64,000 nt of DNA, from NCBI RefSeq assembly GCF_044704955.1, contig NC_091999.1, positions 65,658,001 through 65,722,000 of the forward strand. The letters run 5' to 3'. Positions 20,206 through 62,052 of this stretch are shown here, in pieces (the first letter of the stretch is position 1; each line of letters starts with the position of its first letter). This stretch comes from Pristiophorus japonicus (lineage: Eukaryota). The position numbers and the translations under genes were made by a program. The notes under the pieces were generated by a model. It was not told the DNA's origin. It searched no databases and worked only from the letters and a program-made list of their open reading frames with translations.

Positions 20206-20999
20206 ATGACAATCTGTGATTGTATGCAGAGCACGCGTAGAGCTTCTGAAAGAAATGCATGGGTCACCAAAAGGGCTGGTGTTTGCCCTTTACTATCCTG
20301 CCATTGCAACCATCGGCGTTGCAGGTAAAGTATTTCAGATAATTATTAGTTACAGGAAACATTAGTTAACTGTATCACTGCTCCTATTTGCCAGCAATGC
20401 TTCTCATCTTTAACTCTCTCACTTCTGACGATTCAAACGATGTAACAGAATTATTTTTCATTCTCAACGGAATGACTGCCTAATGTGAGTGTCTGATTCT
20501 CCAATTTTTGTTTTAATGTGTTTTCCAGATAGTCGCATCAGTTTATTTGCTCAGAGGGATATTTTATTGAAATTGAACAATATATGTCACTGTACTGTGA
20601 GTGGTATTACATTCTTATTCCCGTGCACAGATATTTCATATTGTGTCATAGTTATTTGTCTTGTGCGTGGTATCACACCAATATAACTGTGTGGATATAT
20701 TTGATATTGTGTTATTGGTATTTATTCGTCTTCCGAGGCAGTCCCTCGAATCGAGGATGGCTTAATTGTTATTTCATTGTGAATGTTATTATCACACTAG
20801 TAAAATGTACATATATTTCTTATTGTGTTATTAATATTTCACTATGACTGGTATTATTATCCTATTATAACTGTGTATGTATATGTTCTATGGTTTTATT
20901 GGTATTTCACTGTGAGTGGTAATATCGCGCATTTATAACTATGCCCATTTATTTGCTGGTAGTTCTTGTAATTCAGTATACTGCATTCGATGTTCACAT

Positions 21000-22290
21000 G
21001 TGATTTTGTTTATATTAGGGAGACCAATCGCTGGTTAGGTGATCGCTTTTACCTTCATTCAGTCGTAAATGTGACCCTGAGTTCCTGGTCATCTGTTATT
21101 TTAATTCCCCACCCCACTCCCACTCTGAGCTCGCTGTCCTCGGCCTCCTGCATTGTTGTAATGAAGTTCAAAGGAAAGTCGAGGAACAGCACATCGTCTT
21201 TCGATTCGGTGATTTACAACCTTCCGGACTCAAAATTGAATTCAATAACTTCAGATCATAACCAACATTTTTTCGGACACCACCTGTTGGTAATGATTCT
21301 GCTCTTTCCATTTCATCATCATAGGCAGTCCCTCAGAATAGAGGAAGACTTGCTTCCACTCCTAAAGTGAGTACTTTTAATGACAGAACAGTCCAATACG
21401 AGAGCCACAGATCTTGTCACAGGTGGGAGAGACATTTGTTGAGGGAAGCAGTGGATGGTGGAACTGATTTGCCGCATGCTCCTTCTGTTGCCTGCGCCTA
21501 ACCTCTTCGCGCTTGTGGCATTGAGATGCGAAGAGCTTAACGCCCTCACGGATGCACTTTCTCCACCTAGGGCGGACTTCGGTCAGTAAGTTCTAGGTGG
21601 CAGTGGTGATGCCGCACTTTACCAGGGAGGATTTGTGGGTGTCCTTGTAACGTTTCCGCTGTCCACCTTCGGCTCCATATAGAGCAATTACTTAGGGAAT
21701 CTCGTGTCTGACATGCGAACTATGTGGCCTGCCGGGCGAAGCTGATCGAGTGTGGTCAGTGCTTCCATGCTGGGGATGTTAGCTTGGGCGAGGATTCTGA
21801 TGTTGGTGCGCCTGTCCTCCCAGGGGATTTGCATGATCTAGCCGAGACATCGTTGTTCACATATTTCCAGCGACTTGCGGTGCCTTCTGTACATCGCCCA
21901 TGCCTCTGATACATACAGGAGGACGGGTATTACTGCAGTCCTGTAGACCATGAGCTTGATTTTCCTCAGGCGGCTGCTGGACACCTTTTGTTTCTTTACT
22001 TGTCGCATTAGCATCCCTTTTTCTCTTACGCCATTAACCTTTTTGTCATTTAACCAATGCTGCCATCTACCCATTCACTGACCTTCCCTTTTGTTCTTTC
22101 CTCCCCTCGGCCCCTTTCGCTGCCTCTGCACTTGTGTCTCTTATATGTATCCAATTGTGCCGAAAGATCATCGAACTGAAATGTTAACTCTGTTTCTCTC
22201 TCCACAGTTGCTGACTGATCTGCTGATTATTTCCAGCGTTTTTTGATTTTATTTCAGATTTCCAGCAACCGCAGTGTTTTGCTTTTGTAT
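21000..22290 (+). mobile_element. Penelope-like retroelement 3' remnant (GIY-YIG endonuclease plus tail), split by an RTE
   Basis: YIRETNRWLGDRF..YFNSPPHSHSELAVLGLLHCCNEVQRKVEEQHIVFRFGDLQPSGLKIEFNNFRS*; tail TGAAATGTTAACTCTGTTTCTCTCTCCACAG. Confidence 0.85.
21313..21985 (-). mobile_element. RTE LINE 3' fragment
   Basis: KLMVYRTAVIPVLLYVSEAWAMYRRH..QRCL; tail (reverse) CATCATCATAGGCAGTCCCTC. Confidence 0.9.
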
Positions 22291-22339
22291 ATATCTTTGC
22301 TATTACGGTAATGTTGCTGAACTGGGAGTCATATTGTCA

Positions 22340-23430: not shown

Positions 23431-23504
23431 GTTTCAGCGCTATCATAACGGTGTGCACATTTTTCCCATCTTATTATTGGTATTTTGCTGTGGGTAAATG
23501 ATGA

Positions 23505-27005: not shown

Positions 27006-29429
27006 GTCGTTCCATTGTGTTGTTGATATTAGCAGTTGCTGGCTCAGTTCTACAATTTGTTCATTAATTCCGATTATTTGCTAATGAAATTTAATTAATT
27101 AACTTGTTGAATATACATTATTTTGTGGTGAATTGTTGACATAAATATATTCAGTGCAATATGTGGCCGTTTTCAGCATGAATGTATATTTGCCAAAAAC
27201 TTACACAGCAAGCGTTACTGCTCTCCAACTCTGACTCTCACTGGTTCAGGCCGGCTCTTCTCTTCCACATTCGCAGCTGCTGCGAGTTCGAAAGCGACCG
27301 CTGCTGTGACTGGGAGTGCCTTATGGTCATAACACCTGGCAATGTCCCGGATTGTCCGCGTTTTCAAACTTTTCGAGACATGGACTGACGCCGCATAACT
27401 GGTTACATCTCTGGTATCTGAGTCACAAAGTTTAACGTTCAATATCCACACTCGGACTAAGCCAATTATTTATCTTGACAGCGCAGTACTGAACAAGTAT
27501 TGCATTGTTGGAGGGGCCTTTTACTGATCAGCTCCTCCTCACCTGCCAGTTCCAATGGGTCAGATTGACACCGACGATCCAAGGTGATCATCAGCAGAAG
27601 AGTTCGGAGTTTGCACCTCGCTGTTTGGGAATATGTTTGCGCAAGTTGACTGCTGAATTTTCCAATAGTGAATCATTTTACAGTAATTAATCAGATTAGG
27701 GTCTTTACGGTCAGCCGCAAGCCACAATCCGTTTTTATGCATTCTTCCTTTTTTCTTGTTACTTCTTCTTAATAACCTCTCAAATATCTTCTGTAAGCGC
27801 TTCTGAAATGTTAGTTTTGTTGACAATCTGATGACTCCATGTTGGTTTCCAGGTTTGCCGATGAGTTACTTTTCTCCATTATCATTCTTTACTTTATTTT
27901 ACATTACGATGTCATTGGCCTGTCAAATGTTTTATCCGGATCATTAATAAATCATGTGGTCAAAGTTTTAAATTTCACACATTATCCTGCCAAATGGATG
28001 ATTTTGCCTGGAGTCGGACCAGTAATATTACTGTTCTCGATCAATCACACACATTCACTCGCTCTGTCCCTTTCTCACAGATATTCACTCGCTTCCTCTC
28101 TGTCTCACACATTCTCTCTCTGTTACAGCTAAATTAGCAGTCATTGTGATCCTGCGTCGAGGAAGGTGCGGTCTCTCCAGATGTGTCACTCGGTATCTGG
28201 TGGCCATGGCCGTAACGGATCTGCTCGTCATTTTCGCCGCTGCTATATTAAACCGGATTGTAGGTATTTATTTCCCATTTAGCTTCCTGTCCATCACTCC
28301 GGTCTGTCGTTTCCATGTCGCCGTAATCTATGCAACCATAGACTGTTCTGCCTGGTTAACGGTCGCTTTCACCTTTGATCGATATGTGGCCATTTGTTGC
28401 CAGCAGCAGAAAGCAAAATATTGCACCGACAAAACCGTAGTAGTGGTTATTAGCAAGGTCTGTTCAATGAGTTGCTTAAAGAATACCGCATTGTATTTTA
28501 TATATGTACCTTTGTACACAGTTAACAACATACCCTGGTTCTGCAGCATAAGAAAAACATTTTATACATCAACAGCTTGGGTCGCATATGACTGGATTTT
28601 CCACATTTTAACTCCATGTCTCCCATTCATTCTGATTTTACTGCTCAATGCACTGACCGTCAGGCACATTTTAGCGGCCAGTTGACCCCGTAGGAGACTC
28701 CGGGCAAACAGCAATGGAGAGAATCCACACGATCCAGAGATGCAGAAGCGGAGAAATTCCATTGTTTCACTCTTCTGTATCTCGGGCAGTTTCAGCATGT
28801 TAAATGTTTTATTACTTAGAACTTTCATCTATGTCCAGATTGGGAGAATTATCTATTTCTCAGGTTCCACTGTCAATGAATCAAATATTATCCTGGAGGA
28901 ATGTGGATATATGCTTCATCTTTTGAGTTCCTGCATCAACCCGTTTATTTATGCAGGACCCAGAATAAATTCAGAGAGGAGGTAAAGAATGGGGTGAAAT
29001 ATCCACTGAGTCTCACTGTTAAATTATTTCAATTCTAAACAGAGTAAAGTATATAATGAATTGTACCTTGCTGTGCTCTCCTTTCCCGTGTCAGACGGGG
29101 CCTCCGCTCTCAGGTACACAGTCACTCGCTGTAAGATCCATACCCAATGTGAAATTAAGGAGATACGAGCAACAGTGATTCAGCGCACAATTCAGTGCTG
29201 TAACCCATTCTCAGTAAGTTTCCATTTATTTTTTCGGTACGGACTAAGGCCGTGGATTATTTCTACATTTAAGCCGGAAACCGATAGTGCGACCTTGGAC
29301 ATGTGATGGGAGATCAAGTTTAACATTTTAATCAAATGACCCAATATCCCCGCTGGGAATGATTTCTTTCTTCAGGGTCGGGCATGCTCTTACCAGGGAG
29401 GTGGCTTTTTCTGCAAACAATGTTTCTCG

Positions 29430-35751: not shown

Positions 35752-36195
35752 TGGAGCTTTACTCTGTATCGAACCCCATGCTTTACCTGCCCTGGGAGTG
35801 TTTGATGGGACAGTGTAGAGTGAGCTTTAGTCTTTTTTCTAACCCGTGTCTTACCTGCGTTGGAAGTGTTTGATGGGGCATTGTAGAATGAGCTTTAGGC
35901 TTTATCTAATCCGTGCTGTACCTGCCATGGGAGTGCTTGATGGGACAGTGCAGAGGGAGCTTTAGACTATATCTAACCCGTGCTGTACCTGCCCTGGGAG
36001 TGTTTTGTGGGCGAGTGTAGAGGGAGCGTTACACTCTATCTTACCCGTGTTGTACATGCCCTTGGAGTGTTTGATGGGACAGTGGAGAGGGAGCTTTACT
36101 TTTTATCTAACCCGTGCTTACCTGCCCTGGGAGTGTTTTATGGGACAGTGTAGAGGGAGCGTTACCCTGTATCTAACCAGTGCTGTACCTACCCT
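35752..36195. repeat. 67-68-bp minisatellite
   Basis: Unit GGGAGTGTTTGATGGGACAGTGTAGAGGGAGCTTTACTCTGTATCTAACCCGTGCTGTACCTGCCCT. Confidence 0.95.
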
Positions 36196-36484: not shown

Positions 36485-36491
36485 ATATATT

Positions 36492-42529: not shown

Positions 42530-43505
42530 CTATAATTATCGACTTGGAAGAAGGGACTGAGTGTAAAGTAGCCAAGTTTGCTGACGATACAATGATGGGA
42601 GGAAAAGCAATGTGTGAGGAGAACAAAAAAAATCTGCAAAACGACTTAGACAAGCTAAGTGAGTGGACAACAATTTGGCAGATGGACGATAATGTTGAAA
42701 ATTGTGAGGTCATGCACCTTGGCAGAAAAAAAATCAAAGAGCAAGTTATTATTTAAATGGAGAAAGATTGCAAAGTGCTGCAGTACAGCGGGACCTGGGC
42801 TTACTTGTGCATGAAACACAGAATGTTAGTATGCAGGTACAGCAAGTGATCAGGAAGGCCAATAGTATCTCGGCCTTTATTGCAAAGGGATGTAGTCTAA
42901 AAGCAGGAAAGTCTTACTACAATTATATAAGAGATTGGTGAGGCCACACACGAATACTGCGTGCAGTTTTGGTTTCCATATTTTAAAAAGGTTATACTTG
43001 CTTTGGACGGAGTTCGGAGAAGTTTCACGAGATTGATTCCGGAGATGAGGGGGTTCACTTTTAAGGAAAGGTTCGCCTCTACTCATTGGAATTCAGAAGA
43101 ATGTGAGCTGATCTTATCGAAACGTATAAGATTATGAGGGGGCTTTACAATGTGGATGCAGAGAGGCTGTTTCCACTGATGGGGGAGACTTGAACTCGAG
43201 GGCACGATGTTGGAATAACGGGCCGCCCATTTAAAACAGAGATGAGGAGAAATTACTTCTCTCACAGAGTTGTAAATCTGTGGAACTCGCTGCCTCAGAG
43301 AGCTGGGGAAGCTGGGATATTGAATAAATTTAAGACAGAACTAGACAGTGTCTTAAACGATAAGGAGATAAGGGGTTATGGGGAGCTGGCGAGGCAGTGG
43401 AGCTGAGTCCATGATCAGATCAGGCATGATCTTACTGAATGATGGAGCAGACTCGAGGGGCCGTATGGCCTTCTCCTGTTCCTATTTCTTATGCTCTTAT
43501 GTTTT
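42530..43505 (+). mobile_element. CR1 3' fragment (duplicated at 49610-50590 and 59475-60462)
   Basis: EEGTECKVAKFADDTMMGGK..; the same 5' truncation point in all three units. Confidence 0.93.
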
Positions 43506-43677
43506 ATGACACCATCCAAAACGAATTTCCAGCATTGCGTTTGCTACGAAATGGATGAAATGTTCACAAATGAACACAACCAGTTTTAACATTACCAGAA
43601 TAAAGAAAATTAAACAATGCAACGGAGTTCAAATTGAGATTTATTTACAAAAAGCTTTTCATTCGACTTGATTCTTG

Positions 43678-45097
43678 TTATCTGCATTTCCTGTCTAATC
43701 TCAGAATGAGTGCCCAGAGAGATTTCACATAATTCTTCAGCACTGTTCTGAATTTCCCCTGGGTGGCTGCGTAAATGCACGGGTTTTGAATGCTACTCAA
43801 AAACTTCAATAGAGTTCCGGTTTCCATGGTGATATATCCAGGGACTGTGCGGTTGCCTCGGTAATAAGTGGTCTTTGGCAGACTGGTAGTAACAAAGCTC
43901 ATGGCAGATGTCAACCACATCTGTACAAAACTGTGCGATATAGTGAACAGAAAATGATGGATTTCCTTCGGTTCTGCATCTCTGTTTCGCTATGATTCTC
44001 ATTCCTGAGACGCCGCAGTCCCCTGCGAGGTCTATTGGCCACTAATACATGATGGATAGTTAATGAATTAAACAGGACAATTAAAGTAAAATGAAGCCGA
44101 ACAACCCAAGCGCAATCAAATCAGACGTACACTGCACCTAATGGTCAGTGAAAAAACGCCGATCTTGACTGGCAGCCCCAAAGCACATTGTTGATCTTTT
44201 GCTGAGGTTCATATGCAAACAAAAGACGAATATCCTTGAAACAACTCAAAACAAAAAATGTTGTTATAACCGCAGCCGCAGATTGCACAGTCCAATATCT
44301 TGATTAAATTTATGGTAACAGAGAGCTACATATCGCTCAAATGTGAAGAAGATGGTGAACCAAACAGACAAATCAAAGGTGACCGTTGTCATGTAAATAA
44401 TTAGCCGACACTAGGAAGTATGGGACAGCAATGAAAATTGAAAGTGGTAACTGAAAATATCATACACTGTTACATTGATCATGACCAGTAGATCCGCTGC
44501 TGCCATTGCCATCATGCAGACCGAGATACACTTGCAAAGGCCGCACTTTCCTCGGCAGAGAATCACAATTGTCAACAAGTTCGCTGTAAGAAAGAGAGAG
44601 GAGATAAATAATGTTGTAGTGTTTGAATGAAATAGACACGGAGATACCTGTTGAGAACATTCCACTCCATTCAGTGTGATTATCAACATTAAGCAGTGTA
44701 AGAACACGATTATTAGTGCAGCCATTGCCTGGGTATAATCCCCAAACATTTAATGAGCCACTGCAGCACTCATGATGCACAGTGTAAAAAGAACGGCTGG
44801 AAATCCGCTAAAAATCTAAGCGTTGACCTTCAAAATTCATTGTGATCGCTAAGATTATCGGATTTTAAGGAATGTGGTCAGTGCAGACATGCAGTTGACG
44901 ACCTTGTTCCGGTCACTACCGAATGTGTGACGCTGACATCCTGGAAACACATTAACTTATCCAACGGGCTGTAAGATGATGGAAACAACTAAAAGAGATT
45001 AACAACAAACAGGTTACATTGGCTCATCGGGAATACCGAGGGCTGCGAGAATCGGGTAGTAAATCTGTTTAGTCATAACAATAATCGGTCGCCCCAT
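43678..45097 (-). pseudogene. GPR139/GPR142-like GPCR pseudogene, copy 2 (exon 1 45028-45097, exon 2 43678-44583)
   Basis: Exon 1 MGRPIIVMTKQIYYPILAALGIP with the donor mutated to AT; exon 2 ANLLTIVILCRGKCGL..AMAAADLLV..FTFERYVALC..QNPCIYAATQGKFR; TAG at 44411 and frameshifts. Confidence 0.92.
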
Positions 45098-45529
45098 TTT
45101 CCGTGAGAATGGATAAATTCCGCAGCAGTGGAAAGCTTCTGACTGGCGCACTGCTGAAGCAATGGAAAGTGAACCTTTATTGATCTACACATCAATGCAT
45201 CAGGGAATCAATTGAGTTTAACATTAGTCTCAGTCACGTAATAAATACACGAATGTAATTAGCAGTGTTTTCTCTGATACCTCTTTTTAAAAAAACATTT
45301 TGACATTGCTCCAGGACAATAAAAAGAAACACAATTAAAATATTTTTTACAAGTGTAAAGTGAACTGTCCCAGCACTGGTTCTGACCCTATTCCTACCAT
45401 TGTGAGGAGAGTCTGCCCAGCAAAAATCGCGGAAACCCTGCCTTGCTACACGACTGGTGCAAGAACTCCTTCACATCAGTGGTGAAATAAATCATGTAAT
45501 ACATGTGATGACAAAGGTACTGTAGCTTT

Positions 45530-46225
45530 AAAAGTGTCCGTATCTCTCCAGTATTAGTGGCACCTACACATACAGTAGAGGTGACCGAGTTCCTCTGTTA
45601 CTTGTTGAACCTACACATACACTAGAGGTGACCATATCCCTCCTGTACTTGTAATACCCTACACATACACGAGAGGTGACCGTATCGCTCCTGTACTAGA
45701 GGTACCTACACTTACACTAGAGGTGACCATATCCTTCCTGTCCTAGTGGTACCTACACTTACACTAGAGGTGATCGTGTCCCTCTTGTACTATTGGTACC
45801 TACACATACACTAGAGGTGACCGTATCCCTACTGTATTTGTAGTACCTACACTTACACTAGAGGTGACTGAGATCCTACAGTACTAGTGGTTACTATACT
45901 TACACCAGAGGTGACCATATCCCTCCTTTACTTGTAATACCAACACATACACGACAGGTGACTGTATCGCTCCTGTGCTAGAGGTATCTACACTTACACT
46001 CGAGGTGATCGTGTCTCTCCTGTACTATTGGTACCTACACTTACACTCGAGGTGACCGTATCCCTCCTGTCTTTGTGTTTCCTTTACATACACTAGATGT
46101 GATCGTATCTCTCCAGTTTTAGTCATACATGCACTTATACTACAAGTGACTATGCTCCTCTGTTACTAGTTTTAACTACACTTACCCGGAATGACCTTGT
46201 CTCTCCGTTACTATTGGTACCTAGA
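45530..46225. repeat. 47-bp VNTR upstream of GPCR copy 2 (about 15 units)
   Basis: Unit TACACTTACACTAGAGGTGACCGTATCCCTCCTGTACTAGTGGTACC (period 47, 45673/45720). Confidence 0.96.
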
Positions 46226-47163
46226 GTTGCATTAGAGGCAACTGTGCTACCTCGGTGCTTTTAGAGGTAATGGAATTACTCCTGCCTTTATCCCAGAGAA
46301 GAAATTAATCCTCCTTTCCATTTCACATGGGCGACGCCTTATTCTGAAACTATTCTGCCTAGTTGTAGATACATCCTCTCTGCAACTAGACTGGCAAGCC
46401 CCCGCAGAGTTTTATAAGATTCAATGTGGTTACCTCTCATTCTTCCAAACTCCAATGAGTATACGCCCAACGTGTTGAACCTTTTTTCATACGACAATCG
46501 CTTCACCTCATGAAGCAAACTAGTGAAACTTCGCTGAATTGTCTCCAATGTAAATACATCCCTCCTTAAATAAGGAGACCAAACTATATCCAGTACTCCA
46601 GGTGTGGTCTCACCAAACAGTTGTAGCAGGATTTCCCGACTTTTCCACACCATCCCGCTTGCAATCACTTAGCCCATCGACATCGCTTTGCAGATTCTTT
46701 ATATCCGCCTCAAAACTTTCTTTCCCACCTATCTTTGTAGCCTCAGCAAATATGTTTCATTACACTCGATCCCTTCATGCAAATCATTAATATAAATTGT
46801 AAATGCTTGTGGCCCCAGTATTGATCGCTGCGCCACCACACTAGTTAGTTTGCCAACCTGAAAATGACCCATTTATCCAGACACTATGTTAGATAGCCAG
46901 TCCTCTCTCCATGCTAATATATATTACAGCCAAATTCATTGTCTTTTATATTGTATCGTGACACTTTATGTTGCACCTTATCGAATGCCTTCTGGAAATA
47001 CAAATACAAGACATCTACCGGTTCCTCTGTATCCACCCTGCTCGTTAACTATTCAATTAACTCCCGCAAATGTGACAAACATGATTTATTTCCATACAAC
47101 GATGCTGACTCTGCTTGTCTGTGTGATGATTTCCTCAGTGTCCTCTTGCTACTTCCTTAATAA

Positions 47164-47665
47164 CACTCTCTTCCGCAGGCAACCGAAGGCTGCACAGATG
47201 CAATGGAGGTGGAGTTGGGCCTCGTTATAGATGTCTGCCCTTGCTGAGTTTCGGCTCCCGAGCATGTAAAGGTGTCTACTTTGTGCAAGGCCAAGCCATG
47301 TACTATGATGACTTGGGGGCAGTGCTTTGTGCCGGGGTTAGTTTGATGGATGACCTTTGCCTTACTGATGGTTAGTCTAACTCCAATGCTTTCGTAAACC
47401 TCGGTGAAGATGTCGACAATATTTTGGAGTTCAGTTTCTGAATGTGCGCAGAAACATTCATCGTCAGTGTACTGTAGTTCGATGAGACAGCATGGGAAAG
47501 GAGTGCCCTCCTAACTGGCTCAGAGACGGGGACCACACAACAGTAGACGCCTCAAATTGCTGGAGATATATTACCAACTCTGTCTCCAGAAGAACCTGCA
47601 AATCCCCTCAGAGGATAGATGCACCAATGTTAGTGTTCTCGATCAGGCCAAAACCCGCATCAGCG
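47164..47665. mobile_element. 5'-inverted RTE insertion, truncated duplicate
   Basis: Same inverted/forward junction as 55217-56190, cut at ~47665 by a CR1 (47665-48395). Confidence 0.8.
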
Positions 47666-50600
47666 AGACCTGTGTGTCATGCTACATCAGTCATTGAAGG
47701 CTGGCATGCAGTTAAAGCAGGCGGGTAAGAAAACAAATGGCATGTTGGCATTCATAGCGAGGGGATTTGAGTACGGGGCTGGGAGGTGTTACTACAGTTG
47801 TATAGGGCCTTGGTGAGGCCACAACTGGAGTATTGTGTACAGTTTTGGTCTCCTAACGTGAGGAAGGACATTCTTGCTATTGAGGGAGTGCATCGATGGT
47901 TCACTAGACTGATTCCCGGGATGGCGGACTGATATATCAAGAAAGACTGTGTCAACTGGGCTTGTATTCACTGGAGTTCAGAAGAATGAGAGGGGATATC
48001 TTAGAAACGTTAAAACATTCTGACGGGTTTAGACAGGTTAGATGCAGGAAGAATGTTCCCAATGTTGGGGAAGTCCAGAACCAGGGGTCACAGTCTAAGG
48101 ATAATGGGGAAGCCATTTAGGACCGAGATGAGGAAAAACTTGTTCTCGCAGAGAGTGGGGAACGTGTTAAATTCTCTAACACAGAACATTTTTGAGGCAA
48201 ATTCACCAAATATATTCAAAAAGGAGTTGATGTATTCCTAATTACTAGTGGGATCAAGGTTTATAGTGGAAAAAGCAGGAATGGGGTACTGAAATTGCAC
48301 GTTCAGCCATGAACTCATTGAATGAAGATGCCGGCTCGAAGAGTCGAATGGCCTCCTCCTGCACCTATTTTCTATGTCTATGTCTCTATGTTTTCTAAAT
48401 AAACTACATCGAATGGTACCACATTTATCCACCTTACTCTTTATATTCTCAATGAACTCCAGCAAATTGTCAAACATGATTTCTCTTTCATAAAATCATG
48501 CTGACTCTGCTTGACTATATTCTGATATTCTAAATGACCAGATTCTATTCCTTAATAGTGGTCTCCTGTATTTGCCCAATCACAGCTGTTAGTCTAACTG
48601 GTCTATAGTTTTCTGCTTTCTTTCTCCCTCTATTCTTAAATAGTGCCACTTTATTTGTGGTTTTACAATCCCGTGCGACCTCTCCAGAATGCAGGGGTTT
48701 TGGTAGATTGCAGCAAGGCATCCACTATCGCTCCAGCTATTTATTTTAAGATGTCAGAATGCAGGCCATCAGATTCAGGGAATTGTACACCATGAGTCAA
48801 ATTATGTTACCGTGTCCTTTTTCTCCAGTGATAGAGATTGTTTTAATTCTCCCTCCCTATAGCCTCTTGATTATTTATTATGAGGATGCTTTTAGTGTCT
48901 TCCAGCGTGAAGACAGATAAAAATATTTATTGAAAATCTCTCCCATTTCCCCATTTCCAATTATTTAATACAGAATACTTAATGTCAGTTTGATTTTAAA
49001 TGGATTTCTGATCGTGTTTTTTGCAGATAACTTGCAACAGTTTTAAGAGTTTATTAAATTATGACAAAACGTTAATTTTGATGTCCCTTTATTATTTCGT
49101 TTGGCAAACTGATTAATTTAGGACAGCAATAATATTATTCAAGAGTGGTTATTGAACGCACAAAAAAGATAGAATCCATCGTTTTGCTAAGTTAGAAACA
49201 CCCGTCAGTGTACAATCTATATTGTAAGGAAGTAACTGGGAGAGAAGAGGTGAAAAGTCACATCGCTCAGCCTAGGTCCGACTGTTTATTCCATTGTAAC
49301 ACATAGCACATTTCAAGAGCCCGAGGAATGGTGTGTGATGGAGAGACACGCACAGACAATTTTCACACCAATCTTCTAGAATGTTACCAATATTGGTGAT
49401 TGCAAGTTCAGTGGTTGTTTTGGCAATGAATGCCGCTTGTTATAAGGAGTGGTTATAAATAAAGAATTACGCAGATTTATATAGCGCCTTTCACGTCCAC
49501 CAGCACTTTACAGCCAAATAAGTAAGTTTGGAGTGTAGTCACTGTTATGAGTCTAGTATTCTGAATACCAGGTGCTCCTATAACGGGGGATGTGGGGGTG
49601 AGGGCGATGTCCTATATTAGCGACCTGGAAGAAGGGATTGAGTGTAACGTAGCCAAGTTTGCTGATGATACAATGCTGGGAGGAAAAGCAATGTGTGAGG
49701 AGGACAGAGAAAAACTGTAAAAGGACATTAGACAGGCGAAGTGAGGTGGCAAATGTTTGGCAGATGGACTATAATGTTGGAATGTGTGAGGTCATGCACT
49801 TAGGCAGAAAAAATCAAAGAGCAAGTTATGATTTGAATGGAGAAAGATTGCAAAATGCTGCTGTACAGTGGGACCTGGGGTCCCTTGTGCATGAAACACA
49901 AAAGGATAGTATGCAGGTGCAGCAAGTGATAGGAAGGCCTATGGTATCTTGGCCTTTATTCCAAAGGGCTGGAGTATAAAAGCAGGAAATTCTTACTTCA
50001 GCTATATACGATATTGGTGTGGCCACACACGGAATACTGCGTGCAGTTTTGGTTTTCATATTTAAAAAAGGATATACTTGCTTTGGAGGCATTTCGGAGA
50101 ATATTTACAAAGTTGATTCCGGAGATGACAGGCTTGTCTTATGAGGAAAGCTGACGGATTTTGGCTCTCTACTCATTGGAGTTCAGAAGAATGTGAGGTG
50201 ATCTTATCGAATCGTATAAGATTATGAGGGGGCTTGACAACGTCAATGCAGAGAGGATGTTTCTATTGATGGGTGAGATTGGAACTAGTGTGCACGATTT
50301 TAGAATAAGGGTCCGCTTATTTAAAACAAAATTGTGGATTAATTTCTTCTCTCAGAGGATTGTAAATCTGTGGAATTCGCTGCCTCAAAGAACTGTGGAA
50401 GCTGGAACATTGAATAACTTTAAGACAGAAATAGACAGATTCTCAAAGGATAGGTGGATAAGAGGTTATGGGGAGCAGGCAGCGACGTGGAGCTGACACC
50501 ATGATCAGATCAGCCTTGATCTTACTGAGTGACGGAACAGGCTTGAGGCAGCGTATGGCCTTCTGTCCTGATTTCCTATGTTGTTATGATCTTTTGACAC

Positions 50601-50764
50601 CATCCAAGACGAATTTCCAGCATTGCGTTTGTTACGAAATAGATTACATTTTGACAAATGAACACACCCAGTTTTAACATTAGACGAAAAAGCAACATTC
50701 GACAACGTAACGGAGTTCAAATTGAGATTTATTTAAAAAAGCTTTTCATTCGACTTGATTCTTG

Positions 50765-52185
50765 TTAATCGCATTTTCTGACTAATCTCAGAATAATTCT
50801 CAGAGAGATTTCACGGAATTCTTCAGCTCTGATCTGAATTTCCCCGAGGTTGCTGTATAAAGGCACGGGTTTTGAATGCAACTCAAAAACTTCAATAAAA
50901 TCCCGATTTCCGTGGCGATATACCAAGGTGCTATGCGGTCGGCTCGTTAATAAGTGTTGTTTGTCAGTCTAGTAGTTACAAAGCTCACGGCAGCAGTCAG
51001 CCTCAACAGTATGAAACTGCCCGATTAATGAACAGCAAAATGATGGATTTCCTTCGGTCCTGCATCTCTGTTTCGCTATGATTCTCATGCCTGTGACCCC
51101 GCAATCCCCTGCGGGCTCTATTGGCCACTAAAATAGGATGGATAGTTAATGAATTAAACAGGACATTTAAAGTAAAAGGAAGCCAAACAACCCATGCACT
51201 GTGAAACCAGACGTACGCTGCACCTAAAGGTGAGTGAAAAAAAGCCGCTCTTGACTGGCAGCCCCAAAGCACATTGTTGATTATTTGCTGAGGTTCATAT
51301 GCAAACAAAAGAAGAATATCCTTGAAACAACTCAAAACAAAAAATGTTGTTCTAACCACAGCCGCAGATTGCACGGTCCAATATCTAGATTTAAATATCT
51401 GGTAACAGAGAGCACCATATCGATCAAATGTGAAAGAGTCGGTGAACCAAACAGACAAATCAAAGGTGACACTTGTCATGTATATAATTAGTCTCCACAC
51501 AGAAGTGTGGGACAGCAATGAAAATAGAAAGTGATAACTGAAAATATGCTACACTCCTACATTGATAATCATGACCAGTAGATCCGCTGCTGCCATTGCT
51601 TTCATGTAGACCGAGATACACTTGGAAAGGCCGCACTTTCCTTTGCAGAGAATCACAATTGTCACCAAGTTCGCTGTAAGAAAGAGAGAGGAGGGAAATA
51701 CTGTTGCAGTGTTTGATTGAAATAGATAGGGAGATACCTGTTGAGAGCATTCCACTCCATTCAGTGTGATGACCAACATGAAGCAGTATGAGAACAGGAT
51801 TATTAGTGAAGCTATTACCTGGGTAACATCCCCTGCATTTAACGAGCCACTGCAGCGCTCATGATGCAAGGGGTAAAAAGAAGATCTGGAAATCCGCTAA
51901 AAATCCATGTGTTGACCTGCCAAATTCATTGTGACCGCTAAGATTATAGGATTTTAAGGAATGCGGTAAGCGCAGACATGCAGTTCATGACCTTGTTCCA
52001 GTACTACCGACTGTGTGACGCTGACATCCTGGAAATACATTAACTTATCCAACTGACTGCAAGATCAAAGAGACACTAAAAACCGATTAACAACAAACAG
52101 GTTACAATGGCTCACCGGGGACACCGAAGGCTGTGAGAACCGGATAGTAAATCTCTTTGATCAGAACAATAATCAGTCGCCCCAT
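50765..52185 (-). pseudogene. GPR139/GPR142-like GPCR pseudogene, copy 3 (exon 1 52116-52185, exon 2 50765-51673)
   Basis: Exon 1 MGRLIIVLIKEIYYPVLTAFGVP-G|GTGAG; exon 2 ANLVTIVILCKGKCGLSKC..DLLVMIINVGV*HIF..FTFDRYGALC..WLPF; in-frame TAG at 51549 and a frameshift near 51025. Confidence 0.93.
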
Positions 52186-52630
52186 TTTCTGTGAGAATGG
52201 ATGAATTCCGCTGCAGTGGAAAGCCTCTGACTGTCGCACTGCTGAAGCAATGGAAAGTGAACCTGTATTTATCTACACATCAATGCATCAGGGAGTCAAT
52301 TAAGTTCAATCATAATTAACATTAGTTTCAATCACGTAATAAATATACTCATGTAATTAGCAATTTTTTCTCTGATACATCTGTTTAAAAAAACATTTTA
52401 ACATTGCTCCAGGACAATTAAAACAAACACAATGCAAATATTGTTTACAAGTGAAAAGTGAACTGTCGCAGCAATGGTGCTGATCCGATTCCAATAATTA
52501 TGAGGATAGCCTGCCTTGCAAAAATCGCCGAGACCATGCACTTGCCTCAGTACTGTTGCAAGAACTCCTTCACATCAAGTGGTGAAATAAATCCTGTAAT
52601 ACATGTGATGACAACATACTGCAGCATTAA

Positions 52631-54075
52631 AAGTGACCGTATCACTCCAGTATTAGTGGTACCTACAAATACACGAGATGTGATCGAGCTCCTCCGGTAC
52701 TTGTAGTACCTACACATACACTAAATGTGACCGTATCCCTCCTGTACTAGTGGTACCTACACTTACACGAGAAGTGACCGAGCTCCTATAGTACCAATGG
52801 TAACTACACTTACACTAGAAGTGACCGAGCTCCTACAGTACTAGTGGTATCTACACTTACCCTAGGGGTCATCGTATCCCTCCTGTGCTTGTGGTACCTA
52901 CACTTACACTAGAGGTGACCATATCCCTCCTGTACTGGTAGTAGCTCCAGTTATACCAGAGTGACCGAGCTCCTCCAGTACTTGTAGTACCGACACTTAC
53001 ATTAGAGGTGACCGAGGTCCTACAGTACAAGTGGTGCCTACACATACACGAGCAGTGACCAAGCTCCTCCGGTACATGAAGTACTTGCAATTACTGTCGA
53101 GGTGACCGAGGTCCTACAGTACTAGTGGTACCTACACATACACTAGAACTGAACGTATCCTTCCTGTACTAGTGGTAGCTACACTTACACGAAAGGTGAC
53201 CATATCCCTCCTGTTCTAGTGGTACCTACAGTTAAACTAGATGTGTCTGTATTCCTCCTGTACTAATGGTACCTACAGTCACACCAGATGTGTCCCTATC
53301 CCTAAAGTCTTTTAGTACAAACAGTTACACTAAATGTGTCCGTATCCCTCCTGTACTAGTGGTACCTACAGTTACACCAGATGTGTCCATGCCCCTCCGG
53401 TATTTGTAGTAACTACGCATACACTACAGGTGACCGAGATGCTGCAGTACTAGTGGTACCTACACTTACACTGGAGGTAACCGCGATCTTACAGTACCAG
53501 TGTAAACTACACTTATACTAGAGGTGACCGTATCACTCCTGTACTAGTGGTACCTTTACTTACACGAGAGGTGACGTATCCCTCCTGCATTTGTGGTCCC
53601 TACACTTACACTATAGGTGACCGAGAAACTGCAGTACTATTGGTATGTACACTTACACTAGAGGTGACCGTATCCCTCCTGTACGTGTAACTTGTAGTTC
53701 CTACACATATATTAGAGATGACCGTATCCCTCCTGTACTAGTGGTACCTACACTTACACTAGAGGAACTGAGATCCTGCAGGACGAGTGGTAACTGCACT
53801 TACACTAGAAGTGACCATATCCCTCCTGTACTATGGGACCTAAACCTACACGAGAGATGACTGTATCCCTCCTGTATTTGTGGTATCTACACTTGGATGA
53901 GAGCTGACTGTATCCCTCCTGTACTAGTGTTACATATACGTACACTAGATGTGATCTTATCTCCCCAGTTTCAGTTATATTTACAGTTACACTACAAGTG
54001 ACCATGCTCCTCATTTATTGTTTTTAAGTAGACTTACACGGAGATGACCTTGTCCCTCCGTTACTTTGGTACTTA
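52631..54075. repeat. 47-bp VNTR upstream of GPCR copy 3 (about 31 units)
   Basis: Same unit as 45530-46225. Confidence 0.96.
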
Positions 54076-55216
54076 CAGTTACATTAGAGGCAACTGTGTT
54101 ACCTCGGTGCTTTTAGAGGTAATGGAATTACTCCTGCCTTGCTAAAAGAGAAGGCAGTGTATGTTCAATCATAATGTAACTCCAACAGTTAAAAAGGATG
54201 GCTTTGCGACTCCGATATTAATGGTACCCTGAACATACACTGGGATTTCCCATGCTCTTATATTACTGATGAACACCTACTCTTACACTTGAGGTGACCG
54301 TGTTCCTCCAGTGCAAGGAGTACCTACAACCACCCCAGCGGGTAGAGCAGCCCTCCAGTGCTAGTAAGTTCTACACTTACACTCGAGGTGACCGTGCTCC
54401 TCCAGTACTAGTGGAGCATACACAAGTACATAAGAACACAAGAAATAGTAGCAGGAGGAGGCAATTTGGCGCCTCGAGCCTACTCCGCCATTCAATATGA
54501 TAACAGCTGACCTGATCTTGCCCTCAACTCCATTTCGCTGTCTGCTCCCCATAACCCTGACTGCCTTACTTTTCAAAAAATTAGCACCACCTTAAATATA
54601 TTCAATGACCCAGCGACCGCAATTCGCTGGGGTAGTGAATTCCAAACATTCACGACCAACTGAGAGACAAAATTCATCCTCCTTTCCATTTCATATGGGC
54701 GACCACTTATTCTGAAACTATTCTGCCCAGTTTCAGAAACATCCTCTCTGTAACTACACTGGCAACCCCCTCAAAACGTTATAAGTTTCATTATAATTAT
54801 CTCACATTCTTCCAAACTCCAATGAGTGTCGGCCCAACCTGCTGAACCATTCTTCTTCAGAAAATACCAGCACTGCTCAATGCAGCACCACTCTCGTTAG
54901 TTTGCCAACCTGAAAATGACCCATTTATCCCGACACCATGTCAGTTATCCAGTCTTCTCTCAATGCTAATATATATTACAGCCAACTTTGTGAGCTTTCA
55001 TATTGTATAGTAACATTTTATGTTGAACGTTATCGAATTCCTTCTGGAAATACAAATACAAGGCATCTAACGGTTTCTCTTTATCCACCCAGCTCGGTAA
55101 ATACTCTATTAACTCCCGCAAATGTGTCAACCATTATTTCCCTTCCATACAGCCATGCTGAAACTGCTCGTCTGCATGATAATTTCCTAAATCTCCTCCT
55201 GCTACTTCCTTAATAG

Positions 55217-56190
55217 CACTCTCTTCCGCAGGCGACCGAAGGCTTCACAGATGCAATGGAGGCCGTGTTGGACCTCGTCATAGATGTCTGCCCTTGCTGA
55301 GAGTAGCCTCACGACGTCTGAAAAAGTGTCTACGTTGTGCAAGACCGAGCCATGTATTTTGATGACTGGGGGGCAGTGCTGTGTGGCGGAGTTAGTTTGG
55401 TGGAAGACCTTTGCCTTACAGATGGTAATTCTACGGCCTATGCTTTCGTACACTTCGGTGAAGATGTTGACAACATTTGGGAGTTCAGCCTCGGAATGTG
55501 TGCAGACACATTCATCGTCAGCATGCTGTGGTTCGATGACAGAGCATGGGAAAGGACTGCCCTCCTATATGGCTCAGAGAAGGGGACCAGATAACAGTAG
55601 ACACCTCAAATCGCTGGAGATTTATTACCAACGCTGTCTCCAGAACATCCTGCAAATCCCCTCGGAGGATAGATGCACCAACGTCGGTGTTCTCGATCAG
55701 GCCAAAATCTGCAGCAGCGAAGTATTGACAATACTCGACCAGCTCCGTTGGGCGGGTAACATCGTCCACATGCCCGACACAAGACTCCAAAAGCAAGCGC
55801 TCTATTTGGAACTCCTACATGACAAGCGAACCCCGTTGGGCAGAGGAAATCTTTCAAAGACACTCTCAAATTTTCCTTGAGAAAATGGAACATTCCCACT
55901 GACACCTGTTTAACCTTAGTGCAAGACCACCATAACTGGAGGAAGAACATGCGGGAGGGCGGTGAGCACCTCGAGTCTAGTTGCTAAGAGCAAGCCGGAA
56001 GCAAGCAGATGCAGCGGAAGGAGTGTGTGACAAACCAGGCTCCCCACCCATGCTTTCCATCAATGCATGTTGTCCCACCTGTGACAGAGACTGTCATTCC
56101 CATATTGAACTGTATAGACACTTGAGACCTCACTTTTAGAGTGGAAGCAAGTCTTCCTCATATTAGAGGGACTGCATGTGATAATGTAGA
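55217..56190. mobile_element. RTE LINE insertion with an inverted 5' segment and TSD
   Basis: Minus segment 55217-55545 (QHADDECVC..AFGRLRKRV), plus segment ~55557-56185 (ALLYGSE..tail). TTCCTTAAT flanks both sides within a host CR1. Confidence 0.85.
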
Positions 56191-56264
56191 TAATTATTCC
56201 TTAATTATGGACTCCAGCATTTTCCCAACGACAGCGATTACACTGACTGTTCTATGGTTTGCTG

Positions 56265-57852
56265 ATTTAGGAAAATTGATTGGATTGAAGGCCGAGAAAT
56301 CTCTGGGGCCTGATGGACTTCATCCCAGAGTACTTAAAGAAGTGTCCCTAGAAATAGTGGATGCATTGATGATCATTTTCCAACAGTCTATCGACTCTGG
56401 ATCAGTCCTTATGGACTGGAGGGCAGCTAATGTAACACCACTTTTTAAAAAGGGAAGGAGAGAGAAAGCGGGCAATTATAGTCCGGTTAGCCTGGCATCT
56501 GTAGTGGGGAAAATGTTGGAATCAATTATTAAGGATGAAATAGCAGTGCATTTGGAAAGCAGTGACATAATCGGTCCAAGTCAGCATGGATTTATGAAGG
56601 GGAAAGCAGGCTTGACAAATCTTCTGGAATTTTCGAGGATATATCTAGTAGTGCGTACAAGGGAGAACCAGTGGATGTGCTGTATTTGGACTTTCAAAAG
56701 GTCCCACACAAGAGATTGGTGTGCAAATTCAAAGCACATGGTATTGAGAGTAATATATTGACGTGGATAGAGTACTGGTTGGCAGACAGGAAGTCGAGAG
56801 TCGGGATAAACGGGTCCTTTTCAGAATGGCAGTCAGTGTCTAGTGGAGTGCCACAGGACTCAGTGCTGGGACCGCAGCTCTTTACAATATCTTTCAGTGA
56901 TTTGAATGAAGGAATTCAGTGTAATATTTCCAAGTTTGCAGATGACGCTAAACTGGGTAGCAGTGTGAGCTTTGATGGGGACGCCAGGAGTTTGCAGGTT
57001 TATTTGGACAAGTTAGGTGAGTAGGCAAATGCATGGCAGATGCAGTATAATGTGGATAAATGTGAGGTTATCCACTTTGGGGCCAAAAACACGAAGACAG
57101 AATATTATCTGAATGGCAGCAGATTAGGAAAAGGGGAGGTGCAACGAAACCTGGGTGTCATGGTTCATCAGTCATTGAAAGTTGGCATACAGATGCACAG
57201 GCGGTGAAGAAGACAAATGGTATGTTGGCCTTCACTGCTGGGGGATTTGAGTATAGGAGCAGGGATGTCTTACTGCAGTTGTACAGGGCTTTGGTGAGGC
57301 CTCACCTGGAATATTGTGTTCAGTTTTGGTCTCCTAATCTGCGGAAGGACGTTCTTGATATTGAGGGAGTGCAGCGAAGGATCACAGACTGATTCCAGGA
57401 ATGGCTGGGGAGACTGGATCAACTGGACCTTTATGAATTGGGGATTAGAAGGATGAGAGGCGATCACGTAGAAAAGTATACCATTCTCATGGGACGGGAC
57501 AGGTTAGATGCGGGTACAATGTTACCGATGTTGGGGAAGTCCAGAACAGGGGGACAAATATTCGGATAATGGGTAGGCCATTTAGGACGGAGATGAGGAG
57601 AAACTGCTTCACTCAGAGAGTTATTAACCTGTGGAATTCCCTGCCTCAGAGAGTTGTTTATTTCAATTAATTGGATATATTCAAGAGGGAGTTAGATATG
57701 GCCCTTAAGGCTAATGGGATCAAGGGATATGGAGAGAAAGTAGGAAAGGGGTACTGAGGGAATGATCAGCCATGATCTTATTGAATGGTGGAGCAGGCTC
57801 GACGGGCCGAATGGCCTACTTCTGCCTCTATTTCTTGTGTTCTTTTGTTCTT
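56265..57852 (+). mobile_element. CR1 LINE, 5'-truncated
   Basis: GPDGLHPRVLKEV, GVPQDSVLGP, KFADDAKLG and LVRPHLEYCVQFW, plus tail. Confidence 0.96.
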
Positions 57853-60632
57853 ATTATCCTGCATTGCAATGAATTCAAACATTACACGTGCCTTCCTACT
57901 TCCTATCAATGTGGATAACCTCACTTTTTCCCAAGTTATAATCCATCTGCTAAATTTTTGCCCTCTCAGCCTGTCGCCTGTCCTCCTCACAACATACTTT
58001 AGTATCATCAGCAAATGTGCCTACATTACACTCGGTCCCTTCATCCAAGGCATTAATCTAGCTTGGAAATAGTGGAGGCCACAACACTGATCCTTGTGGC
58101 ACCCCACTCGCGTCAGTTTGACTGTCTGAAAATGAACGATTTATCCCAATTCTCTGTTTTCTGTTGGTTAGCCAATCTTCTATCCTTGCTGGTATATTAT
58201 CCCAAACCCGTGAGCACTTGTCTTGTGCAGTAACATTTTGCATGGTATCTTGTCTAATGTCTTCCTGAAATCCAAGTACACGAAATCTAATGGTACCGCA
58301 TTTATCACGCCGACTCGTTATATCATCAAAGAACTCCAGCAAATTGTCAAACATGATTTCTCTTTCATAAAATCATGCTGACTCTGCTTGGCTGTATTGT
58401 GATTTTCTAAATGGCCTGATTCTATTTCCTTAATATTGGTCTCCAGTATTTGCCCAATGACAGATATTCGGCGAACTGATCTATAGTTTTCTGCTTTCTT
58501 TCTCCCTCCGTTCTTGAATAGTGCCGATTTATTTGTGGTTTTACAATCCCGTGGGACCTCTCCAGAATCCAGGGGTTTTGGTAGATTGCAAGCAATGCAT
58601 CCACTATCTCTGCAGCTATTTATTTTAATATCTCAGAATGCAGGACGTCAGGTTCATGGAATTGTACACCATGAGTCCCAGTATGTTACCGAGTCCTTTT
58701 TCTCCAATGATAGAGATTGTTTTAATTCTCCCTCCCTATAGCGTCTTGATTATTTATTATTAGGATGCTTTTAGTGTCTTCTAGCGTGAAGACCGATAAA
58801 GATATTTATTGAAAATCTCTCCCAATTTTCCGTTTCCAATTATTTAACACAGAATACTTAATGTCAGTTTGATTTTATCTGGATTTCTGATTGTGTTTTT
58901 AACAGATAACTTGCAACAATTTTAAAAGTTTATTAAATCAATGACAAATGATAATTTTGAAGTCCCTTTATTATTTCGTTTGGCAAACTGATTAATTTAT
59001 GACAGCAATAATATTATTCAAGATTCTTTTATTGAAAGGACACAAAAGATAGAATCCATCGTTTTGCTGAGTTCAAAACACCAATCAGTGTACAATCTCT
59101 ATTATAAGTGTATAACCTGGAGAGAAGAGTTGAAGAGTCACATCGGTGAGCCACGTTCCGACTGTCTATTCTATTCTAACACATAGCACATTTCAAGAGC
59201 CCGAGGAATGGTGTCCGATAGAGAGACCCACACATAAAATAATCACACCAAACTTCCAGGAATGTTACCAATATTGGTGATCGCAAGTTCTTTGGTTGTT
59301 TTGGCAACTAATGCCGGTTGTTGTAAGGAGTGGTTATAAATGAAGAACTACGTAGAATTATTTAGCGCCTTTCACGTCCACCAGCACTTTACAGCCAATT
59401 AAGTAAGTTTGAAGTGTAGTCACTGTTATGAGTCAACTATTCTGAATACCAGGTGCTCCTTTAACACGGGGGTCGATGTTCTATATTAACGACATGGAAG
59501 AAGGGACTGAGTGTAACGTTGCCAATGTTGCTGTCGATACAATGATGGGAGGAAAAGCAATGTGTGAGGAGGACACAAAAAATCTGCAAAATTACATAGA
59601 CAGGCTAAGTGAGTGCCTAAAATTTGGCAGATGGATTATAATGTTGGAAAGTGTGAGGTCATGCACTTATGCAGAAAAACATCAAAGAGCAAGTTATTAT
59701 TTAAATGGAGAAAAATGCAAAATGCTGCAGTACAGTGGGACCTGGGGTCACTTGTGTATGAAACACAAAAGGATAGTATGCAGGTACAGCAAGTCATCAG
59801 GAAGCCAATGGTACATTGGCTTTAATGTGAAGGGGATGGAATATAAAAGCAGGAAGGTCTTACTACAGCTATATAAAATATCGGCGAGGCCACACATGGA
59901 ATACTGCATGCAATTTTGGTTTTCATATTTAAAAAAGGATATACTTGTTTTGGAGGCGGTTCAGAGAAGGATTGCAAGGTTGATTCCGGAGATAAGAGGC
60001 TTGTCTTATGAGGAAAGCTTGCGTAGGTTGGGCCTCTAATCATTGGAGTTCAGAACAATGTGAGGTGATCTTATCCAAATTTATAAGATTATGAGGAGAC
60101 TTAACAACGTGGATGCAGAGAGGATGTTTCCATTGATGGGGGAGTCTCGAACTTGAGGCACGATTTTAGAATAAGTGGCCGCTTATTTAAAACAGAGATG
60201 AGGAGAAATGTCTTCTCTCAGAGGATTGTAAATCCGTGGAATTCGCTGTCTCTGAATATTGTGGAAGATGGGACATTGAATAAATTTAAGACAGAAATAG
60301 AGAGTTTCTTAAATGACAAGGGGATAAGGGGTTATGGGGAGCGGACTGCGCAGTGCAGCTAAGTCCATGATCAGATCAGGCATGATCGTACTGAATGATG
60401 GAGCAGGGTCGACGGGCAGTATGGCCTTCTCCTATTCTTTTTGTTATGTTCTTATGTTCTTATGACACCATCCGAGACGTATTTCCAGCACTGCGTTTGC
60501 TACGAAATGGATGACATTTTCACAAACGAACACACCCAGTTTTAACATTACCAGAACAAAGAATATTATACAATGCAACGGAGTTCAATTCATATTTATT
60601 TACAAAAAGCTTTTCATTCGACTTGATTCTTG

Positions 60633-62052
60633 TTATCCGCATTTTCTGTCTAATCTCAGAATGAGTGTCCAGAGCGATTTCACGGAATTCTTCAACTCTG
60701 CTCTGAATTTCCCCTGGTTTGCTGTATAAATTCACGGATTTTGAATGCAACTCAAAAACTTCAATAAAGTTCCAGATTTCGTGGCGATATAGCCGGGACT
60801 ATCCTGTCGCCTCAGTAATAAGTGGTGTTTGTCAGTCTGGTAGCTATAAAGCTCACGGCAGCACTCAGCCGCAACAGTATAAAACTGTCCGAAATAATGA
60901 ACAGCAAAATGATGGATTCCCTTCGATTCTGCATCTGTGTTTCGCTATGATTCTCACTCCTGTGACCCTGCAGTCCCCTGCGAGCTCTATTGGCCACTAA
61001 AATACGATGTATAGTTAATGAATTAAACAGGACAATTGAAGTAAAAGGAAGCCAACCAACCCCTGCTCTGTGAAGTCAGACGTACGCTGCACCTAAAGGT
61101 GAGTGAAAAAAAGCCGCTCTTGACTGGCAGCCCCAAAGCACATTGTTGATTATTTGCTGAGGTTCATATGCAAACAAAAGAGGAATATCCTTGAAGCAAC
61201 TTAAAATAAAAATGTTGTTATAACCGCAGCCGCAGATTGCGCGGTCCAATATCATGATTAAATTTCTGGTAACAGAGAGCTACATATCGATCAAATATGA
61301 AGGAGACAGTGAACCAAACAGACAAATCAAAGATGACAGTTGGCATGTATATAATTAGCCTACCTTCGGAAATGTGGGACAGAAATGAAAATGAAAAATG
61401 ATAACTGAAAATATGATACACTGTTACATTGATGATCATGACCAGTAGATCAGCTGCTGCCATTGCAAGCATGTAGACTGAGATACACTTGGATAAGCCG
61501 CACTTTCCTCGGCAGAGAATCAGAATTTTCACCAGTTCGCTGTAAGAAAGACAGAGAGGAGAAATAATGTTTGCAGTGTTTGATTGAAATTGACACGGTT
61601 ATACCTGTTGAGAGCATTCCACTCAATTCAGTGCGATTATCTACATGAAGCATTGTGAGAACAGAATTATTAATGCAGCCATTTCCTGGACAACATCCCC
61701 AAACATTTAATGAGCCACTGCAGCGCACATGATGCACGGGGTAAAAAGAAGGTCTGGAAATTCGCAGAAATCTATGAGTCGTCCTTCAAAAATCATTGTT
61801 ATCGCTGAGAGTGTCGGATTTTAAGGAATGCGGTAAGTACAGACATGCCCTTCACGACCTTATTCCAGTCACTACCGACTGTGTGACACTGACATCCTGG
61901 AAACATATTAACTTATTCAGCAGGTTGTAAGATCAAGGAGAAAATAAAAACCGATTAAGAACGAAAAGGTTACAACGCTTACCAGTGACACTGAAGGCTG
62001 CGAGAATCGGGTAGTAACCCTCTTTTATCAGAACAATAATCGCTCGCCCCAT
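60633..62052 (-). pseudogene. GPR139/GPR142-like GPCR pseudogene, copy 4 (exon 1 61983-62052, exon 2 60633-61539)
   Basis: Exon 1 MGRAIIVLIKEGYYPILAAFSVT-G|GTAAG; exon 2 is frameshifted right after AN, then ILCRGKCGLSKC..AMAAADLLV..FIFDRYVALC; a second frameshift near 61260 and further stops. Confidence 0.92.

Follow-up and report, generated by a model that had tools for sequence, protein, structure and literature searches.

A large family of class A receptors in sharks and rays with diversified predicted ligand pockets, a candidate chemosensory-type repertoire

A stretch of 64,000 nucleotides from the sawshark Pristiophorus japonicus (contig NC_091999.1, positions 65,658,001 to 65,722,000; hereafter the window, numbered from its first letter) carries four decayed copies of a G-protein coupled receptor (GPCR) gene, one of type A and three of type B (B1 to B3), whose relatives form a large family in sharks and rays. 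Members of this family are class A (rhodopsin-like) GPCRs, and the transmembrane (TM) positions predicted to line their ligand pocket evolve fast among paralogues and slowly in related single-copy receptors; as read from protein sequences, this is the pattern that marks a ligand-diversified repertoire. We regard it as an even bet that the repertoire is of a chemosensory type. The four genes of the window are themselves dead and count only as evidence of turnover. Member proteins were already catalogued in RefSeq and UniRef under automatic names; what is new here is the controlled test of the pocket, the single-copy groups that serve as sister and controls, the family's loss of the residues with which GPR139 binds its agonists, and the downgrading of a linkage to T-cell receptor (TCR) genes that had been proposed in an original prediction made from the letters of the window.

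Size, distribution and annotation of the family

Protein searches at an expect value (E) of 0.001 or less, with matches clustered at 90%, returned 1246 proteins with copy A as query and 695 with B2. Of each set the best 120 were used; distant non-members may be among the rest. The resulting family counts rest on proteins of other species and are hence minimums. All 240 of these best matches are elasmobranch, with 109 from the horn shark, 36 from Pristiophorus, 30 from Heptranchias, 20 from the whale shark and 45 from eight other species. The original prediction of a lineage-expanded, birth-and-death GPCR repertoire is supported by an elasmobranch clade to which the horn shark alone contributes at least 109 distinct proteins. 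A profile built from 19 members and run against 1.84 billion representatives gave 139 matches at E of 1e-30 or less, and 18 of 19 further in-clade representatives that were checked are from named sharks, skates or rays; for the other, P0291, no species was shown, and its accession prefix is one that we take to be that of the elephant shark. Types A and B are 48% identical, and since both occur on contigs of the same size in Heptranchias (8228298) and in the whale shark (4160643), mixed clusters probably exist elsewhere. With contigs told apart by their length, members lie on at least nine contigs in the horn shark, seven of them at least 19 Mb long, and on at least three in the small-spotted catshark.

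Assignment to class A follows from Pfam 7tm_1 (PF00001), from structure and from motifs, all of which fit. The predicted model of an intact relative, the Pristiophorus protein P0001, has seven TM helices plus helix 8 (mean predicted local distance difference test score, 74.8), and a fold search matched class A receptors. Among 297 family proteins, C3.25, the cysteine of extracellular loop 2, D2.50, R3.50, N7.49 and Y7.53 are each kept in 287-295 (D2.50 in 292, R3.50 in 295, both cysteines in 291 and Y7.53 in 288), and P6.50 is mostly absent, being present in 21. An RG(K/R)CGL motif, which was initially described as conserved and which lies in intracellular loop 1 (ICL1), is exact in three of the four window copies (B2 has KGKCGL) and in just 123 of the 297 proteins, its CGL core being found in 273.

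Elasmobranch models named "probable G-protein coupled receptor 139" in RefSeq and UniRef are members of this family. The names are automatic and inconsistent, other members being called "GPR15-like", "capa receptor-like" or "FMRFamide receptor-like". No paper on this elasmobranch family was found in the open-access literature, most subscription journals lying outside the search. The supplements searched (eight files of PMC13188829 and part of the files of PMC8455134 and PMC10322711) held no match, and GPCRs go unmentioned in the portion of the PMC10620051 main text that was covered.

Evolution of the predicted pocket

Site rates were estimated with IQ-TREE and scaled to the TM mean, and 30 pocket positions were compared with 177 other TM positions, with P0001 as the numbering reference and class A anchors as fixed points. 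Four sets were used: 78 type A paralogues of the horn shark, 70 of 119 type B proteins, and two groups of single-copy orphan receptors described below, G1 (70 of 90 proteins) and G2 (24 of 24). Pocket positions outpaced the other TM positions both among type A paralogues of the horn shark (1.57 vs 0.90, p 2e-4) and in the B paralogues (1.40 vs 0.93, p 3e-4), whereas the relation was reversed in single-copy G1 (0.59 vs 1.07, p 0.007) and G2 (0.26 vs 1.12, p 3e-7). Tree lengths of the A, B and G1 sets are similar, at 10.7-11.9. When the comparison was restricted to the extracellular half of the helices, the contrast between family and single-copy groups held in all four comparisons (p<=4e-5). 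Sites on the signalling face of the receptor are slow in the family, with rates of 0.44-0.88 for ICL1, intracellular loop 2 and helix 8, and the DR and NxxxY sites are likewise slow among paralogues. A check on pocket residues had been proposed as a ratio of nonsynonymous to synonymous substitution rates (dN/dS); carried out instead on protein rates, it agrees with what a chemoreceptor-type repertoire would show, pockets that diverge among paralogues and are constrained among orthologues, though less strongly against other extracellular-half positions.

A similar contrast is seen in sister pairs. Sister pairs were taken at a support of at least 0.9, pairs more than 90% identical being hidden by the clustering, and cross-species pairs were presumed to be orthologues. 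The ratio of pocket to other change is 1.46 in 33 same-species pairs, with the pocket ahead in 22 (p 0.002), versus 0.81 in 15 cross-species pairs, and the two ratios differ by permutation (p 0.0026). Diversity at eight pocket sites follows the same lines: distinct eight-site strings number 91 in 109 horn-shark proteins, 24 in 90 of G1 and one in 24 of G2.

Relationships to GPR139, GPR142 and single-copy orphans

For the phylogeny, 481 proteins were aligned and 56 dropped for core coverage below 85%, leaving 425 rows for FastTree, from which 47 were picked for IQ-TREE. In both trees the shark family is one clade and groups with an amphibian orphan receptor, G2 (support in the 47-row tree 96/95 for the family and 99/96 for the grouping with G2), so that here the sister of the shark-and-ray expansion is a single-copy amphibian gene. 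After the family itself, the next full-length profile matches are vertebrate orphans that are likewise auto-named GPR139, and a search with six of them resolved two groups, each with about one protein per named species. G2 (the P0331 and P0418 group) consists of amphibian proteins, with no amniote or teleost member among the 120 matches listed. G1 (the group of P0487, P0415, P0470, P0339 and P0505) is found in sharks, bony fishes, coelacanth, amphibians and reptiles; it is misnamed GPR139 or GPR142 in databases and kept about once per species, sharks having their own G1 gene besides the expansion. Both resemble the family in their short N-terminus and related ICL1, are about 30% identical to it and are its nearest relatives by profile and tree, but differ from it in having about one copy per species and near-invariant predicted pockets. 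Raw identity does not separate the two groups (30.4% to G1 vs 29.6% to G2). Orphans designated "GPR210A/B" are named beside GPR139/142 in gar, coelacanth and fishes in a passage of PMC6504862, and G1 and G2 are possibly these same genes.

The window genes had been described as GPR139/142-like, which is accurate to the extent that human GPR139 is the best sequence match in the PDB (E 5.7e-9 and 39 bits for P0001; E 1.6e-16 and 63 bits for the family profile, with the prolactin-releasing peptide receptor at 54 bits). Members of G1 and G2 match GPR139 slightly better than the family does, and the fold search ranks GPR139 sixth among near-equal class A matches. The family does not appear to consist of GPR139 or GPR142 orthologues, because P0001 matches human GPR139 at E 5.7e-9 only, compared with an identity of 70% between the human and zebrafish orthologues of this two-exon gene in the part of PMC7318219 available. 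GPR139 and GPR142 share with the family a two-exon gene, a similar TM1, and partial retention of H5x43 and W6.48. They are single-copy and activated by L-Trp and L-Phe, whereas the shark family is multi-copy and has most of the agonist-binding residues replaced.

Predicted ligands

In GPR139, contacts for Trp and Phe agonists have been assigned by mutagenesis to F109(3x33), H187(5x43), W241(6x48) and N271(7x38) and by modelling to R244(6x51), as given in sections of PMC5430874. Mapped onto the family through the GPR139 profile alignment, F3.33 is kept in 36 of 297 proteins, H5x43 in 143, W6.48 in 191 and N7.39 in nine, while R6.51 is kept in five of 120 type A proteins vs 90 of 90 in G1 and occupies one of the fastest-evolving sites. 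Three of the five determinants are kept in seven of the 297 proteins and more than three in none.

These figures bear on the proposal that the family is an aromatic-amino-acid-sensing repertoire tied, functionally or evolutionarily, to the TRA/TRD locus. The rank of GPR139 as best PDB sequence match, the partial retention of H5x43 and W6.48, and two TCR V pseudogenes adjacent to the cluster would all fit such a repertoire. The remaining determinants are mostly gone, however, GPR139 leads other peptide receptors by a small margin only (63 vs 54 bits), other receptors rank higher in the fold search, and the dispersal of the family over the horn-shark contigs speaks against a tie to one locus. 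Since the residues that bind Trp and Phe are mostly lost, amino-acid sensing is unsupported, and we consider the proposal very improbable. Acidic sites, on the other hand, are retained at 7.36 (E in 229 of 297) and at 3.37 (D in 82% of 240). Because the basic Arg6.51 is lost and the acidic 3.37 and 7.36 are mostly kept, cationic ligands, whether amines or peptides, seem more likely than free aromatic amino acids. As a conserved sensor of amino acids or peptides, G1 would be a better candidate, and the single-copy amphibian sister G2 offers a route to the ancestral ligand.

A possible chemosensory-type or immune repertoire

A chemosensory role is preferred because of the size and pattern of the family and because few olfactory genes are known in cartilaginous fishes. 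Those fishes are credited in a part of PMC10869828 with 20-62 olfactory genes (mean 43.8) despite many sensory neurons, the smallest repertoire of any vertebrate group; the catshark has eight receptors of the olfactory receptor (OR) type, three ORA, three TAAR and two TARL according to an extract of PMC11979771, and a "paucity of GPCRs" in cartilaginous fishes is noted in a passage of PMC8455134. Like the OR, TAAR, V1R, ORA and T2R families, the shark family has tandem clusters, many pseudogenes and a short N-terminus. The OR, TAAR, V1R and T2R families are of other ancestry, and the shark family differs in having a TM1 intron. Pfam matched the family with 7tm_1 only and with no OR, V1R or TAS2R model, and no OR, TAAR, V1R or T2R name occurs among the 240 listed homologues. 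Pocket-biased divergence among paralogues is known in ORs and was measured here in the shark family. One proposed hallmark did not survive comparison: the minimal N-terminus is no sign of a chemoreceptor, because single-copy relatives have it too, with 12-14 residues before the TM1 YYP motif in G2 and mostly 13-15 in G1.

In a chemosensory repertoire of this kind, tandem duplication would create new receptors, the predicted ligand pocket would be retuned after duplication, and surplus copies would decay into pseudogenes. Intact paralogues would then bind different ligands with a common G-protein output, and candidate sites of expression are the nose, taste buds or chemosensory cells of the skin. 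A bolder version, which we advance tentatively as possible, is that a GPR139-related orphan was independently recruited in sharks and rays as a family of receptors sparsely expressed in olfactory or other sensory cells, and larger than their OR, TAAR, V1R and V2R sets combined. If true, cartilaginous fishes would no longer be animals that smell with only 20-62 receptors, and vertebrates would gain a new chemoreceptor family. A single shark with more than 100 members whose pockets are diversified, all behind an automatic name that misleads, would change the picture of GPCR paucity whether these receptors are sensory or immune.

Several observations weigh against a chemosensory repertoire. The set of 30 pocket positions follows a general class A consensus rather than a structure of the family, and against other TM positions of the extracellular half, the stricter control, the pocket is only modestly ahead (p 0.035 in A, 0.11 in B). 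The rates are protein rates and hence no demonstration of positive selection. Cross-species pairs show no significant slowing of the pocket, which is ahead in seven of 15 (p 0.33), and the tree was built without true GPR139 or GPR142 sequences. Part of the local copy number may stem from a gene that was dead before it was duplicated or took part in conversion, because B1 and B3 have a frameshift and a stop in common. The cluster adjoins immune gene segments and, in the portion of PMC11979771 covered, a catshark "brain and olfactory epithelium" top-50 list contains no GPCR, known V2Rs being likewise excluded.

Some of these points suit a rival that we judge unlikely but far from negligible, namely that the ligand-diversified repertoire serves on immune or barrier cells (leukocytes, skin or gut) in the manner of mammalian FPR or MRGPR receptors, detecting microbial or tissue peptides. 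Diversification of the pocket would fit this equally well, TCR Valpha/delta-like segments lie 16 kb from the cluster, and a peptide ligand would accord with the relation of the GPR139 group to invertebrate peptide receptors reported in part of PMC12208981 and with the FMRFamide-receptor-like clusters that are the look-alikes of the family in the Atlas. The adjacency nevertheless weighs little, because members are spread over many chromosomes. In mammals, moreover, OR genes are interspersed with TRAV segments (PMC2275272, in the section covered), and therefore such linkage is no sign of immune function.

Layout and decay of the copies in the window

A tblastn search of the window found exactly four receptor loci, one of type A on the forward strand and three of type B on the reverse strand, as follows.

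20255..20324, forward strand: copy A coding exon 1 (70 nt; N-terminus and most of TM1)
28129..29038, forward strand: copy A exon 2 (end of TM1 to C-terminus), with TGA at 28683-28685 and a frameshift near 28959
45028..45097, reverse strand: copy B1 coding exon 1, donor mutated from GT to AT
43678..44583, reverse strand: copy B1 exon 2, with three stops, two frameshifts and one 3-nt deletion
52116..52185, reverse strand: copy B2 coding exon 1
50760..51673, reverse strand: copy B2 exon 2 (3' end approximate), with two stops and two frameshifts
61983..62052, reverse strand: copy B3 coding exon 1
60630..61539, reverse strand: copy B3 exon 2 (3' end approximate), with three stops and four frameshifts
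42340..63414, no strand: tandem units of about 7-10 kb with B1-B3, each of LINE (long interspersed nuclear element) fragments, receptor gene and 47-bp minisatellite

The layout is that originally described, with four paralogues of two divergent subfamilies at the same coordinates. All four are two-exon class A GPCR genes with a 70-nt coding exon 1, a phase-1 intron within TM1 and 12 residues N-terminal to YYP. The intron is 7804 nt long in A and 444, 442 and 443 nt in B1, B2 and B3, respectively. The TM1 motif reported for all copies is degraded in A (GVA|AK) and B3 (SVT|AN). Exon 2 of copy A is 88% identical to P0001. Of five receptor fragments submitted to Pfam, four matched 7tm_1; these came from A, B2 and B3, and the short B1 fragment gave no match.

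All four copies are pseudogenes, as was first noted, each with at least one stop and one frameshift. The three stops of B3 fall within short-read contigs with no differing letters (from a single sample, which may be the one that yielded the window), and assembly error was rejected on this ground for the stops of B3 only. Summed contig depth was about 90-490 over exon-2 bins and 6-44 over most unique flanks; it is not a measure of copy number and was not used. The B units are 82-84% identical across blocks of 3.9-5.2 kb by self-BLAST, and by exon sequence B2 and B3 are closest to each other (11.7% different, vs 13.2%). B1 and B3 nevertheless have in common a 1-nt deletion (44306/61260) and a Trp>TGA stop (44123/61078), both lacking in the middle copy B2, and it is possible that this sharing reflects duplication after gene death or gene conversion.

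Such a cluster raises the idea of neutral or near-neutral amplification, in which repeat-rich tandem units would carry the receptor genes along as passengers and the pocket would simply have been freed of constraint. The death of all four copies, the flanking LINEs and minisatellites, the lesions common to B1 and B3 and the weak pocket excess of type B over other extracellular-half positions would agree with it. Against this, hundreds of full-length proteins keep the class A core residues, and the pocket outpaces other TM sites in paralogue pairs and not in cross-species pairs. Even among the pseudogenes B1-B3, pairwise dN/dS is 0.53-0.59, and these genes were therefore under selection in the past. 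We consider amplification of this kind improbable.

Neighbouring V segments and repeats

The DNA of the window is of shark type, with abundant minisatellites and remnants of LINEs, and its nearest database proteins are those of P. japonicus. Further features are listed below.

2575..3010, forward strand: TCR Valpha/delta-like pseudogene 1, with leader, V exon carrying a deletion/frameshift, and recombination signal sequence (RSS) at 2972-3010 with 23-nt spacer
4210..4547, forward strand: TCR Valpha/delta-like pseudogene 2 (start approximate), with internal stop, second Cys lost, and RSS at 4509-4547 with 23-nt spacer
19343..19752, no strand: 35-bp minisatellite, ending 503 nt 5' of the copy A ATG
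45534-46185, 52633-54012 and 62480-63414: 47-bp minisatellites of the B copies, ending 428-448 nt upstream of the B ATGs

TCR V genes had been placed next to the receptors. Two Valpha/delta-like segments are indeed present about 16 kb from copy A, with near-canonical RSSs, and both are pseudogenes; in the PDB they match TCR alpha/delta chains best (E 5.9e-5 for the first and 2.5e-5 for the second). Motif scans of the remaining 59 kb of the window revealed no further V segment, and the two may represent either the edge of a TRA/TRD locus or orphons. The suggestion that the family as a whole parallels OR-TRAV linkage is not supported by the distribution of its members: because they occupy at least nine horn-shark contigs (and at least three in the small-spotted catshark), TCR linkage appears local at best. 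In a family so dispersed, one cluster near V pseudogenes is therefore weak evidence of any tie, and the adjacency is likely a local accident of that cluster.

Minisatellites make up 15.6% of the window. Given this coverage and the dissimilarity of the two repeat units, there are only two independent cases here of an array upstream of an ATG. Homology of the 35-bp (A) and 47-bp (B) arrays was rejected, five of six comparisons falling within shuffled controls and unrelated arrays scoring equally high. Other dense minisatellites are found at 5031-9828, 29434-30981, 33053-33575 and 35753-36196, with units of 38, 53, 46 and 67 bp. Fragmentary open reading frames at about 14100-16400 resemble a PIF/Harbinger transposon (transposase plus a Myb/SANT-like gene), a Pfam scan of four fragments giving no support. 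Many LINE remnants are scattered through the window, one of them marked by an RVT_1 match at 56566-57021.

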